Made by a program: the position numbers and the translations under genes | Origin: a phage | Reading direction: 5' to 3' (one strand) | DNA: 64,000 bases | Sequence record: PZ386951.1 | The notes under the pieces: generated by a model | Seen by the model: the letters and a program-made list of their open reading frames with translations, nothing else | Database searches by the model: none | Told to the model about the DNA's origin: nothing | Part shown: one piece after another, positions 32,634 to 44,815 of the stretch | How positions within the stretch are numbered: position 1 is the stretch's first letter | How the letters are laid out: every line of letters begins with the position of its first letter

Positions 32634-33095
32634 TCATTGAGTTTTAATTACTGCTTTAGAAGCCTTTCCTGGTAAACGACGACTGTTGATAATTGCCATC
32701 CTACATTGAAGTGACGGGTTTTTGAACTTCTCATTAGGTTTACAAACCGTAAATCCAAGCCAAAGATTTCCATCTGTGATTTCTAAACGTCCAGGACGAT
32801 ATTCAACCCCATCAATAAAATCCTCGTCAATGTCAGGACGTGGAGGCATACTCAGGAATTCATTAACTTCTAAAACATGGTCTTTTATTTTATGGAATAA
32901 TTCAAAAACATATGTCTCATCAATCTCCCGTTGAATTGCACGATCAAGAAGATGCTGAGAATATTTTAGATGAAACGATGAGACCCCTGCTGCTTTTGAT
33001 GCCTCACGAATCTCATTGTTAATTTGACGAAACTCCGACTCAAAGTGACGACGGAGCTTATTTCGACGGATAAAAACTTCTGTGTTGATAGTCAT
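32634..33095 (-). CDS. regB: endoribonuclease RegB
   Basis: 153 aa MTINTEVFIRRNKLRRHFESEF...; matches T4 RegB as recalled. Confidence 0.88.
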   Translation of the reverse strand: MTINTEVFIRRNKLRRHFESEFRQINNEIREASKAAGVSSFHLKYSQHLLDRAIQREIDETYVFELFHKIKDHVLEVNEFLSMPPRPDIDEDFIDGVEYRPGRLEITDGNLWLGFTVCKPNEKFKNPSLQCRMAIINSRRLPGKASKAVIKTQ

Positions 33096-33699: not shown

Positions 33700-33913
33700 A
33701 TTTGACTTCCTCACCAGTACATAAATCATATTCAACTAAACGAATAGGTTCATGAATGCCATATCCCTGAACAGAAATTTCTGTCGTAGGATAAATTCCA
33801 CTAATATCACCCATGTTCCATGCTTCATTAAATTGCTGTTCGCCTGAATTACTAAACCATTCGGCGAAAGCATTTAGCACATCTTCAGAACCTTCAATAA
33901 TTATCTTTGCCAT
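33692..33913 (-). CDS. hypothetical protein
   Basis: 73-aa ORF. Confidence 0.4.
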   Translation of the reverse strand: MAKIIIEGSEDVLNAFAEWFSNSGEQQFNEAWNMGDISGIYPTTEISVQGYGIHEPIRLVEYDLCTGEEVKYD

Positions 33914-34275
33914 TACAAACTCTCGGTAAAGGTACGAGCGATAACGTCGCGCTGCTGTTCCGGAGTCAGAGAGTTAAAGCGAACTGCATAACCGGATACA
34001 CGGATGGTCAGTTGCGGATATTTTTCCGGATGCTTAACTGCATCTTCCAGAGTTTCACGACGCAGAACGTTAACGTTCAGGTGTTGACCACCTTCAATTT
34101 TAACTGTAGGCTGTTGCTCAATTTCAATTTCACGGGCATGCAAACCATAGAAAATTTCTGGGTCTACAAAAGAGTCCTCTTTAAAGGTTTTAGAGACAAT
34201 AATTCGTGCTTGAATACCATCTTCAAAATAAATAGTACCTTTATGTGTGCCTTCAAGAATTTGATATGCTTTCAT
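33913..34275 (-). CDS. autonomous glycyl-radical cofactor (GrcA/YfiD-like)
   Basis: 120 aa; C-terminal half [33 protein letters not shown] carries the glycyl-radical signature RVSGY. Confidence 0.8.
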
Positions 34276-34282
34276 ATAAACC

Positions 34283-34663
34283 TCAATTAGAAAATAAATT
34301 TATCCAAGATTGTTCTTTAATTAAAAATGGCTCAGAATCATATGCCATTAAACTTTGCGTAATTAGTCCTTTTAAAGGACCATCAATAAATTCCATGGTA
34401 AAATATGGAATTTTATTCATTAGCCGTGCATTAGGAGCAGTACACAAAACTCTGCATCCTTTGAATACGCCTTTTTGTAATTTGTATTGCTTAGGATAAA
34501 ATTCGCTCAAAATGTTGTTATTTGCCAAAATTTCAAAATGATTCACCAATTTATTTTTAATAGTTTTTGGCGAAAAATAAAGATATTCGAAAAGCTGAGT
34601 GTCTGTCATCATTGCATTCCGATTACGAAAAACTGTGGACGAGTAATACCACCAATACAACAT
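34283..34663 (-). CDS. hypothetical protein
   Basis: 126-aa ORF. Confidence 0.4.
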
Positions 34664-35148
34664 TTACTATTACAGCAGTACTGCACAGTGTCAATATGGG
34701 CACTATAAATCTTATCCATATCAGGAGATTTGACAGGCTCATCAATTATATACAAAATTCGCGAAAGCGATAAACCTCTGAACTTGCTTCCTTTATTACC
34801 GATAAAACTGCGCACAGAATCAGTAAATAAGCGGAATCGAATATCATCATTAGAATAACGCGAAAATTCCTTTTTAATGTTATTTGCAGAAATTTTAGCG
34901 TAAGCTGAAGTATTAGAAAGAACAATAACTGTTCCGCCGTCATACAACCAATTAGCGGCAAAATTAGTTACTGCAGTTGATTTACCGGATTGACGTCCAC
35001 CATCTAGTCGAAGTGTGCAATACTGCTTAAGTAAGTCTTCAAATGGTGGGATATAATCGTTTTTACAAATTTCTTCTACTCTAGCATCAGAATGGTGTGT
35101 AAAAGCATTCATCAGGGATAGATAAGGACCAGTTAAAAATGTTCTCAT
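34609..35148 (-). CDS. small P-loop NTPase-like protein
   Basis: Start taken at MRTFLTGPY; Walker A GGRQSGKST and Walker B-like ILYIIDEP. Confidence 0.45.
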   Translation of the reverse strand: MRTFLTGPYLSLMNAFTHHSDARVEEICKNDYIPPFEDLLKQYCTLRLDGGRQSGKSTAVTNFAANWLYDGGTVIVLSNTSAYAKISANNIKKEFSRYSNDDIRFRLFTDSVRSFIGNKGSKFRGLSLSRILYIIDEPVKSPDMDKIYSAHIDTVQYCCNSKCCIGGITRPQFFVIGMQ

Positions 35149-35301
35149 TTTATTCTCTCTAAATTTGGGCCATTCCGTGGCGCATGAATTGTCCATTTCT
35201 GTATTTACCCATTACCGCACTTGGGCTCGACCTTATTACAGGTTGGCGGGAATCCCTCATAGAATCATGAGGTCCAGGTTGTTCCCATATTTCTTATTTG
35301 C

Positions 35302-35775
35302 TTATTTGAACGATTTAACGTACTGAATAGAACCTTTACTATTCACGAAAGCGATTTTACCATTTTTATTATACATGGTAGCAGTACGCTGATAACCATA
35401 AGTTTGCTTACCAGATTGATAACCAACTAATGCAAAATTATCTTCACCCATTTTATTCTGTTTAGCACGAATGCGTTCATGACCATGTGCCATAAGAACC
35501 TTAGCATCACCAGTTGCAATGGATCGACGAGTTTTTTCATCTTCAACTGTATTAACAAAATCGTCAAATGAATCAAATTTAGCGTGAGATTTATTATACA
35601 GTTTTCCATCTACTGCATAATTATATCCCTGTACATCCATCTCAACTTCTGTACCATCATCCAGTACAGCAGTGATTTTTTGACCTTTTTTAAATTTCAA
35701 AAGATCAGTAAAAGATTCAGCAATAATTTGAGATTTAATAGCTGCTTCAGTGATAAATTCTTGATATGTTTTCAT
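35302..35775 (-). CDS. internal-protein-like protein with capsid targeting sequence
   Basis: 157 aa; N-terminus MKTYQEFITE followed by AA matches the T4 internal-protein targeting sequence and prohead-protease site. Confidence 0.55.
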   Translation of the reverse strand: MKTYQEFITEAAIKSQIIAESFTDLLKFKKGQKITAVLDDGTEVEMDVQGYNYAVDGKLYNKSHAKFDSFDDFVNTVEDEKTRRSIATGDAKVLMAHGHERIRAKQNKMGEDNFALVGYQSGKQTYGYQRTATMYNKNGKIAFVNSKGSIQYVKSFK

Positions 35776-35784
35776 ATGTTTCCT

Positions 35785-36201
35785 TTAAATGTAAATATTT
35801 TTGCCGTAATACTTATACCAGTGCGGCTTCATTAAAATTTTTTCATCGAGTCGTTGTTGACTCAACCTAATAGCTGATTTGCATGGATTATAATCATTTT
35901 TCCATTCTACTGGAATATCACTGATGTCAGGAACTTCAGTATCTTTTATACTAAACCTGCGTTTTAAGCATTCCGTTATAATGTCTGATTGACGCTTTCG
36001 CAAAAATTCTAACTTATCGTAAAAGAACGTAACATGACCAGAACCTAAAATAAACTCGGAAGATATTTTAAAATCTTTAACCCGTTTACCATTTGCCACG
36101 TGTTTACGAATTATACCAAAAACACGTGGCAATTCACGGTATTCCGCGATTAAATGTTGATCAGCAAGTTCAGATACTAAAGTCAAATTAATACGAGTCA
36201 T
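35785..36201 (-). CDS. denV: endonuclease V (pyrimidine-dimer DNA glycosylase)
   Basis: 138 aa [29 protein letters not shown]...; matches T4 DenV as recalled. Confidence 0.9.
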
Positions 36202-36226
36202 TTTACCCCTCCAAGTAATTATGAAT

Positions 36227-36256
36227 ATACTATCACAATTCTAGGAGAAAGTAAAC
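36227..36256 (-). promoter_or_regulatory. sigma70-type early promoter upstream of denV
   Basis: On minus strand GTTTAC, 18-nt spacer, TAGTAT. Confidence 0.5.
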
Positions 36257-36258
36257 TG

Positions 36259-36561
36259 TTATTTACCTTTAATTACTTTAGCTGCTTCGATAGCCGCTTG
36301 CTGAAGGTCATCCATAGACATACCGAATTTAGAAGCAAAGTTATCAATTTTCTTTTCGACAGCATTCAAAGGCTTGGCCTGTTTACCTTCATTAGCGCCA
36401 GGAAGAGCGAGAATACGCTCTTTGTCAATATAAAGGCTTACAAGTTTCTTACGGTCTTTATCGGACAAATCATGAAATGAATGGGCCTTTTTATTTATAG
36501 CGGCTTCTAATTTACCTGCACTCACTCGCGCTTCAGTAATAAATTCTTGATATGTTTTCAT
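36259..36561 (-). CDS. ipII: internal protein II
   Basis: 100 aa; MKTYQEFITE targeting sequence; T4 position and size. Confidence 0.85.
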   Translation of the reverse strand: MKTYQEFITEARVSAGKLEAAINKKAHSFHDLSDKDRKKLVSLYIDKERILALPGANEGKQAKPLNAVEKKIDNFASKFGMSMDDLQQAAIEAAKVIKGK

Positions 36562-36602
36562 ATGTTTCCTTTAAATGTAAATAGGTCTGAGTATTAGCTT
36601 TA

Positions 36603-37181
36603 TTAGGAATTACGGGCTGCATTAGCAACGGCATACGCGTACTGAACATTAGCGTCTTTAAACGTACCTTTAGAGGTATCTATTTCTGCCTTAAAGCCGC
36701 CTTTAGTCATAACATCGGCAAATTCTTTACGGAAAGCCATTGCATCAAGACCTTTCCATGATGATTTATGCTTGGCGAATTCAAGACCAGCGTAGTTGAC
36801 AGCCTTAGCTAATTTATTATCAATAACCCATTTACCAGCTTTAGGCACAAACTTCGGGCCTTTCTGTTTAGAGAACAGTTTTAAATTCCAGCGGCGAAGG
36901 TCACTGTCGGCTTTAACAAAAGCTGCGTCTAAGTTACTAGCAACAACATCTTCAATATGAGCAAATTTAAGTCCGTCAACTTCAATATTTAGATCGGTAC
37001 GCCAGCGAAGTCCTTCCCAAGCGAAGGCTTTAAAGTCGGAAGCCTTTGTAGCTAAGTACCGTTCAATAGGAGCTGTTTTAGGGTCAAAGCCGTTTCCTGA
37101 TCGGTAGGTCCACTCATCTTTGTTAATGCCTTTGGCCTTTACTACAGAAACTTCGGCAATAAATTCTTGATATGTTTTCAT
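36603..37181 (-). CDS. ipIII: internal protein III
   Basis: 192 aa; MKTYQEFIAE targeting sequence; T4 position. Confidence 0.85.
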   Translation of the reverse strand: MKTYQEFIAEVSVVKAKGINKDEWTYRSGNGFDPKTAPIERYLATKASDFKAFAWEGLRWRTDLNIEVDGLKFAHIEDVVASNLDAAFVKADSDLRRWNLKLFSKQKGPKFVPKAGKWVIDNKLAKAVNYAGLEFAKHKSSWKGLDAMAFRKEFADVMTKGGFKAEIDTSKGTFKDANVQYAYAVANAARNS

Positions 37182-37240
37182 ATGTTTCCTTTAAATGTAA
37201 ATATTTTAATTAGTAATTGTCTATTCAAGTAATTGTGAAT

Positions 37241-37274: not shown

Positions 37275-38243
<969 letters not shown>

Positions 38244-41281: not shown

Positions 41282-41845
41282 TTATTTACCCAGTTTAGTT
41301 ATTATAGCTTCGGCAGCAGCTTTTAGCTTAGATGCAGTGTTAATACGATTTTTAATTTCAGTATACGCATCGCCAAGAACATCAAGGCTATCTGAATAAA
41401 CACTTACACTATTGCGTTCACTATTTGAAATAGAACCTTTAGTTTTACGATCAAAATCGGTGTACACGTCTTGAAGATCGCGGGCTGCCTTCTTTGCATC
41501 ATCCAATGCATCAAGAGCTTTATTTAAAGCATTAACATATTTTTTAGTGTCAAACATATTCTTAGAAATTTTGACGGGTGCGCGTTCAGGAGTAGCTAAG
41601 GCAGATTTAGGAACCTGAGCGCCTGATGCCAGTTTCTTAGAAATTTTGAAAAATGCTTTATTGAATTTATTTTCTTGACTCATCGTAAAAGAACTATTAT
41701 CGATGTTATACATTTCAATAGCTTTAGCTTTCCACTTAAGAAAATCGCCCCGGTCTTTTGGGTCCAAGTGGAAGAATACTTTAGTAAGATCTGCTTCAGA
41801 TGGTAATTTTGCTGCTTCGGTTAAAAATTCGGCATAGGTTTTCAT
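41282..41845 (-). CDS. internal-protein-like protein with capsid targeting sequence
   Basis: 187 aa; N-terminus MKTYAEFLTE followed by AAK. Confidence 0.5.
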   Translation of the reverse strand: MKTYAEFLTEAAKLPSEADLTKVFFHLDPKDRGDFLKWKAKAIEMYNIDNSSFTMSQENKFNKAFFKISKKLASGAQVPKSALATPERAPVKISKNMFDTKKYVNALNKALDALDDAKKAARDLQDVYTDFDRKTKGSISNSERNSVSVYSDSLDVLGDAYTEIKNRINTASKLKAAAEAIITKLGK

Positions 41846-44581: not shown

Positions 44582-44815
44582 TCATTTTTTACGAAAAATT
44601 GATTTATTTTCTGCTGCCCATTTTTCAATAACTGCAGCCGGACCAGTAACAACAATTTTATCACCGTAATCTTCTGCGGCGAGTTGACCGAAATTATCTA
44701 ATGCATCACGAAGAACTCCATGAGGCATTTCACCCATTTTATCTTTCTTGCCAGTGTAAATAAACTCAACTTTTACATCAGAAGATTCAGCGATAAATTC
44801 TTTAAACGTTTTCAT
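44582..44815 (-). CDS. internal-protein-like protein with capsid targeting sequence at the ipI locus
   Basis: 77 aa; N-terminus MKTFKEFIAE followed by SS; directly upstream of 57B as for T4 ipI; shorter than T4 IPI as recalled. Confidence 0.5.
   Translation of the reverse strand: MKTFKEFIAESSDVKVEFIYTGKKDKMGEMPHGVLRDALDNFGQLAAEDYGDKIVVTGPAAVIEKWAAENKSIFRKK

Follow-up and report, generated by a model that had tools for sequence, protein, structure and literature searches.

The 64,000-nt stretch of phage DNA analyzed here (record PZ386951.1; hereafter, the window) carries, between vs.8 and denV, a 157-aa ORF that begins like an internal head protein, which raises the question of what this protein is and what it might do. 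An earlier note on this DNA had taken it for a new capsid-targeted cargo. The ORF list and the translation agree with that note in placing the ORF at 35302-35775 and in its opening with MKTYQEFITE followed by AA; the frame fills this interval exactly from ATG to stop (N-terminus MKTYQEFITEAA), and lies on the minus strand, a detail absent from the note. The claim of novelty does not hold, as the ORF is the already known Ip4 (IpIV) of T2 and ~470 other T4-like phages. The protein is 99.4% identical to T2 IpIV, RB14 Ip4 and the RB27 protein in tblastn searches and to Ip4 of phage K3 (UniProt Q38388), sharing 156 of 157 residues with T2 IpIV and differing only at residue 14, which is lysine here and asparagine in T2. 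Pfam family DUF7412 (PF24183) matches over the full length, residues 1-157, at 318.4 bits (curated cut-off 27), PHROG 3155 "internal virion protein" matches with an E-value of 1.7e-101, and the only significant neighbor in the BFVD structure library is Q38388, "Ip4 [Enterobacteria phage K3]".

Homologs of ip4 were detected by tblastn in 471 of 50,697 phage records and in about half of the records that matched the locus (471 of 936). At least 99% identity was found in 188 of the 471, including T2, RB14, RB27, Shfl2 and many Shigella, Yersinia and Citrobacter phages, while another 160, chiefly Klebsiella phages, fell between 60 and 80% identity. The name Ip4 is said to originate with Repoila et al. 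1994. It or IpIV already stands on the annotations of T2 (LC348380, NC_054931), RB14 and Shfl2, the T2 wording being "ipIV: IpIV internal head protein" and that of RB14 "Ip4". A passage of Silas et al. 2025 (PMC12373910) puts the internal proteins recognized by their signal sequence in related phages at "at least 10", crediting Repoila et al. 1994, and Ip4 is, going by that passage, among them. Nucleotide differences from T2 (15 synonymous, 1 non-synonymous) and from FelixPlatter (20 synonymous, 1 non-synonymous) indicate that ip4 is under purifying selection. In one T2 record, AP018813.1, the Ip4 gene is tagged "valyl tRNA synthetase modifier", which looks like an annotation error.

The gene lies in a minus-strand array with the order regB, vs.3, vs.4, vs.5, vs.6/GrcA, vs.7, vs.8, ip4, denV, ipII, ipIII, e, nudE (Table 1). 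The T4 annotation and DNA alignment bear out the earlier statement that T4 has no gene between the vs genes and denV: in a three-way DNA alignment, the T4 denV stop codon abuts the conserved segment that comes after ip4 in the window and in T2. The stretch between e and vs.8 is variable, reading e-ipIII-ipII-denV in T4, e-ipIV in T2 (which lacks denV, ipII and ipIII), e-denV-ip4 in ECO4, e-ip4 in a Klebsiella Jiaodavirus, and e-ip4 with another 105-aa leader-bearing ORF between the two in FelixPlatter (Bas40). The window has e-ipIII-ipII-denV-ip4, and ip4 adjoins vs.8 in all ip4-bearing configurations compared. The denV allele of the window is ~96% identical in nucleotides to the ECO4 type and ~75% identical to T4 denV. 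When a 1-kb probe spanning contiguous ip4, denV and ipII (35500-36500) was searched against the 50,697 phage records, none of the 623 matching records covered 80% of it, so this mosaic is absent from that collection. The phage combines two known locus types in a new mosaic, which is the expected reshuffling at this locus and no new kind of feature. In phage ZCEC14 (OP168898.1), denV and ipII are tagged "TraG-like protein | ssDNA binding protein", apparently another annotation error.

Table 1. Coordinates of ip4, its predicted processing products and neighboring features in the window.
Feature	Position	Strand	Basis
regB	32634-33095	-	
vs.6/GrcA	33913-34275	-	
vs.8	34609-35196	-	
Conserved G+C-rich non-coding segment, fixed vs.8-side boundary of the internal-protein array	35167-35286	-	Alignment, contig search
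ip4 (ipIV) CDS, 157 aa + stop	35302-35775	-	ORF list, tblastn, Pfam, PHROG
Predicted mature Ip4*, residues 21-157 (137 aa, 15.5 kDa, pI 9.3)	35305-35715	-	
Residues 11-20 (AAIKSQIIAE), predicted disordered linker with predicted second site I-A-E|S	35716-35745	-	pLDDT, conservation, IPI precedent
Capsid-targeting sequence, residues 1-10 (MKTYQEFITE), with first gp21-type site I-T-E|A	35746-35775	-	Sequence, IPIII mapping
45-nt 5' module common to ip4, ipII and ipIII	35753-35797	-	Ribosome-binding region and first 23 nt of the leader
denV (endonuclease V), ECO4-type allele found with ip4	35785-36201	-	
ipII (Ip2), leader-bearing, opens MKTYQEFITEAR	36259-36561	-	PHROG 7857 "internal virion protein"
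ipIII (Ip3), leader-bearing, opens MKTYQEFIAEVS	36603-37181	-	PHROG 5341 "internal virion protein"
e	37275-37769	-	

The difference between phages with and without ip4 starts exactly at the edge of a 120-nt non-coding segment that hardly differs between the window, T4, T2, FelixPlatter and ECO4. The segment core, CCTGTAATAAGGTCGAGCCC, occurs in 21 viral contigs of 14-173 kb, divergent T4-like phages included, and every reading frame of both strands is interrupted in at least one version of the segment. One predicted base pair covaries (AU 8, CG 3, UG 3 and UA 2, with no mismatch among 16 versions) and a 5' hairpin carries a compensatory change in FelixPlatter, whereas the remaining pairs do not vary. 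The segment matched no Rfam family, and single-sequence folding gave a z-score of +0.43. We regard it as a weak candidate for either a structured vs.8 leader or a recombination boundary that stays fixed. The start of vs.8 (35148-35196) is probably over-extended in annotations. Within the 195-aa vs.8 ORF, the match to PHROG 1488 starts only at residue 19, and the spacing before the internal ATG (35148) differs by 0 nt in the window, -1 nt in T2 and +8 nt in T4, placing the upstream part in three frames. The 219-aa Vs.8 of T4 (NC_000866, 64253-64912) therefore likely includes this non-coding segment.

The leader of Ip4 can be compared with that of IPIII, in which targeting depends on positions 4 and 7 and processing on positions 8 and 10 (PMC9026906). 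Ip4 keeps all four of the mapped residues: Y4 and F7, the same as in IPIII, and I8 and E10, which supply the determinants of cleavage by the prohead protease gp21 (L or I at position 8, E at position 10). Read against this mapping, the ORF carries a true capsid-targeting sequence. The leader had been described as shared with IPII and IPIII at 36259-37181, and both parts of that description stand, since these two genes match PHROG 7857 and 5341 and a 45-nt string, TATTTACATTTAAAGGAAACATATGAAAACATATCAAGAATTTAT, recurs unchanged at the three genes, at 35753-35797, 36539-36583 and 37159-37203. This module comprises 22 nt with the ribosome-binding region and the first 23 coding nt. The likeness of the three leaders is far beyond chance, and ip4 occupies the place of an internal-protein gene, between e and vs.8 and beside ipII and ipIII. 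At its upstream end, the ip4 copy of the module reaches into denV and covers its last four codons and stop, so the window denV ends in GKNIYI where T4 denV ends in GKAIYA. Repoila et al. reportedly proposed that ip genes are shuffled by recombination in conserved sequences that flank them, and the 45-nt module is consistent with such shuffling.

In another reading, the leader is a relic of recombination among the ip genes and Ip4 is left unpackaged, acting in the producing cell or representing a decaying gene. A 45-nt module could be copied by recombination without selection for targeting, and our literature search returned no report of Ip4 processing and no direct evidence of Ip4 in virions. 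Several observations nevertheless make this reading very improbable. The leader motif and E10 are present in 14 of 14 enterobacterial representatives of the Ip4 family, and a similar leader, MNFxxFLNE, opens two of three distant relatives (~35% identity) whose DNA has long diverged; ip4 is under strong purifying selection; and the first 10 residues of IPIII are by themselves enough to package foreign proteins (PMC9026906). We hold it to be very probable, by analogy, that Ip4 is a packaged, processed internal protein.

Propeptides of internal proteins are 10-19 residues long (PMC9026906), and Ip4 probably has a second processing site beyond the leader. We aligned 16 members of the Ip4 family, 13 at 61-99% identity and the three distant relatives, which were all that profile searching added from among 1.84 billion representative proteins. 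E20, with L, I or M at P3 and followed by S or A, is found in 15 of the 16, and the distant relatives read LNE|S at this site. In the AlphaFold model, residues 10-18 are disordered (pLDDT <50) and the chain is well folded from about residue 21. A precedent is offered by T4 IPI, whose translation reads MKTFKEFTSTTTPVSTITE|ATL... with an ITE|A cut after residue 19; its mature form has 76 residues (PMC3012670), which of 95 in total places the cut at that residue. Taken together, the conservation of E20, the disordered linker and the IPI precedent suggest that a second cut probably falls after E20, with mature Ip4 starting at S21 and residues 11-20 probably forming a second excised propeptide. The K14N change, the only difference from T2, would be lost with this propeptide.

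Modeling of the protein with AlphaFold2 on a deeper alignment gave a pLDDT of 86.2 and a pTM of 0.80, with the five models ranging from 83.8 to 86.2. The predicted fold comprises a beta-hairpin (residues 33-54), three helices between residues 70 and 103, and a C-terminal sheet (113-156). A structure search with this model returned no close structural relative, leaving a fold without a solved relative, and the family sequence profile matched no PDB chain below an E-value of 0.5. Searches of NCBIfam and PADLOC yielded sub-threshold noise only. The profile and structure search that the earlier note had suggested for the mature protein thus delivered a family, DUF7412/PHROG 3155, but no structural relative. 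In pairwise comparisons of mature Ip4, Ip2, Ip3, IpVI, T4 IPI and two other leader-bearing proteins, no significant similarity was found, and mature Ip4 showed no homology to the GmrSD inhibitors Ip1, Ip2 and Ip3.

The mature protein is basic, with a pI of 9.3 and a net positive charge (17 of its 137 residues are Lys and 5 are Arg), and mature Ip2 and Ip3 are likewise basic. Being basic, Ip4 cannot imitate DNA as the anti-restriction proteins Ocr, ArdA and Arn do with their strongly acidic surface, and none of these proteins was matched in the structure search. An enzymatic role built on H64 and the HGH motif at residues 97-99 was also considered and rejected. H64, H97 and H99 are absent from the distant relatives, which argues for a binder over an enzyme, and we saw no sign of a catalytic site.

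The lysine-rich composition of mature Ip4 would also suit a protein that is mainly structural or DNA-associated, one that neutralizes or organizes packaged DNA or aids core and head assembly and has no specific host target. A head holds ~1000 internal proteins whose lysines touch DNA phosphates (PMC3012670), IPIII mutants assemble heads more slowly and have a lower burst (PMC9026906), and the negative result for ip4 on a GmrSD panel, described below, fits such a role. We nevertheless consider it unlikely. Only about half of the locus-matching records have ip4, T4 thrives without it, and, in phages that have it, strong conservation across the entire folded domain is easier to reconcile with a specific partner than with generic charge neutralization. 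Ip3, moreover, was formerly deemed structural and proved to be a GmrSD inhibitor (PMC12373910).

We propose instead that Ip4 is an injected inhibitor of a first-response defense, and we infer its packaging, processing, injection and target from the features described above. The gene would probably be expressed late in infection, within an e-ipIII-ipII-denV-ip4 transcription unit. The 10-residue leader would dock on the scaffolding core of the prohead, gp21 would trim it after E10 and, very probably, cut again after E20, and the basic 137-residue Ip4* would stay in the head with the DNA and be ejected with it into the next host. There it would most likely inhibit one specific first-response nuclease defense, stoichiometrically and by direct protein-protein binding, and as the target we would guess first at a type IV, modification-dependent restriction enzyme that does not belong to the GmrSD groups tried so far. 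We give this account as a whole an even chance of being correct, and its specific proposal of a type IV target beyond those tried a chance that comes close to even and at best reaches it.

Scans for regulatory signals found no exact copy of the late-promoter consensus TATAAATA just upstream of ip4, ipII or ipIII, and scans for sigma-70 promoters and terminators gave no specific signal immediately before ip4 or behind it. One exact copy of the T4 late-promoter consensus lies within the ipII CDS, at 36492-36499 on the minus strand, and transcripts begun there would reach denV and ip4.

As Ip4 has no sequence similarity to Ip1, Ip2, Ip3 or IpVI and no structural relative, its function has to be argued by analogy. 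The statement that IPI* is the only internal protein with a known role is outdated: Ip1, Ip2 and Ip3 block GmrSD-CT596, GmrSD-ECOR21 and GmrSD-ECOR17, respectively, with no cross-protection (PMC12373910), and another leader-bearing protein, Bas37_0260, blocks McrBC (HIDEN-SEQ preprint, 10.1101/2025.11.20.689424). All four leader-bearing proteins with a known target inhibit a type IV restriction enzyme. Silas et al. 2025 proposed that every protein of both internal-protein loci targets GmrSD variants (PMC12373910). When ip4-10 were expressed against a published panel of common enterobacterial GmrSD variants, no reproducible inhibition was observed, which supplies part of the restriction-protection test that the earlier note had suggested. 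T2, in which Ip4 is the sole internal protein at the e-to-vs.8 locus, is restricted by GmrSD-CT596, GmrSD-ECOR21 and GmrSD-ECOR17 (PMC12373910). Together with the negative panel, restriction by these three systems makes Ip4 an orphan. The idea of a candidate anti-defense effector thus survives as the leading hypothesis for proteins of this kind and is plausible for Ip4, but it is neither new nor proven.

The relative-less fold and the lack of inhibition of common GmrSD variants suggest that Ip4 may target another defense class. An injected effector with a target other than a type IV restriction enzyme is possible, at clearly less than an even chance; candidate targets are some other immediate-early defense, such as a BREX-associated system, a Druantia-like system or an abortive-infection sensor, or a host-takeover target as for the packaged ADP-ribosyltransferase Alt. 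That Ip4 would inhibit a class of defense not previously linked to internal proteins seems rather unlikely; if true, it would break the proposed GmrSD-only rule of both internal-protein loci.

Two further ORFs of the window bear such a leader. One, of 187 aa (41282-41845, minus strand), opens with MKTYAEFLTE|AA and sits outside both classical internal-protein loci, with the e.x genes on one side and the tRNA cluster on the other. It was found in 165 phage records and belongs to PHROG 2280, "unknown function"; among the matches listed, 25 of 25 are "hypothetical protein" or unannotated (e.g., RB14ncORF136c). It looks like an unrecognized cargo with capsid targeting, and of the candidates in this window it may be the one less explored. 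The other, of 77 aa (44582-44815, minus strand), opens with MKTFKEFIAE|SS at the ipI position adjoining a 57B-like gene. This protein is IpVI: it falls in PHROG 8111 and has 100% identity to the one annotated ipVI in phages GiZh and PST. The leader-bearing ORFs bring the predicted capsid-targeted proteins of the window to five: Ip2, Ip3, Ip4, IpVI and the 187-aa ORF.

This analysis yields no new gene, Ip4 being already known; what it adds is the probable second site at E20, a confident model without structural relatives, and exact module boundaries, which explain the gain and loss of ip4. Internal proteins enter the host with the phage DNA and can thereby disarm defenses before phage gene expression. 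Ip4 is among the most widespread orphans: roughly every second related phage has it, T2 and many Klebsiella phages that are candidates for therapy among them, and finding its target would add a pair of defense and counter-defense and help host-range prediction.

Compared with known systems, the closest counterparts are the Ip4 proteins of T2, K3, RB14 and RB27, which are the same protein at the same locus adjoining vs.8; the residue-14 difference from T2 lies in the linker predicted to be excised, and the predicted mature proteins are identical. Like Ip4, T4 Ip2 and Ip3 are encoded at this locus with the 45-nt module, have a near-identical 10-residue leader and have basic mature parts, whereas their mature domains are unrelated to that of Ip4, and ip4 did not reproducibly inhibit the GmrSD variants tried. 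T4 IPI*, the inhibitor of GmrS/GmrD of E. coli CT596, resembles Ip4 in having an N-terminal capsid-targeting propeptide that ends, in Ip4 by prediction, in I-x-E and is removed some 19-20 residues in, and both are small, non-essential proteins of polymorphic loci. The mature proteins differ, however: Ip4*, with 137 residues, is almost double the 76 of IPI*, the two have no sequence similarity, and IPI* is absent among the structural neighbors of Ip4. T2, which has Ip4 but lacks IPI, is restricted by GmrSD-CT596 (PMC12373910). Bas37_0260, compared by description, is a non-T4 internal protein with the same N-terminal signal; it is encoded at the ipI locus, unlike Ip4 at the e-to-vs.8 locus, and its target, McrBC, indicates that the targets of internal proteins reach beyond GmrSD to other type IV enzymes.
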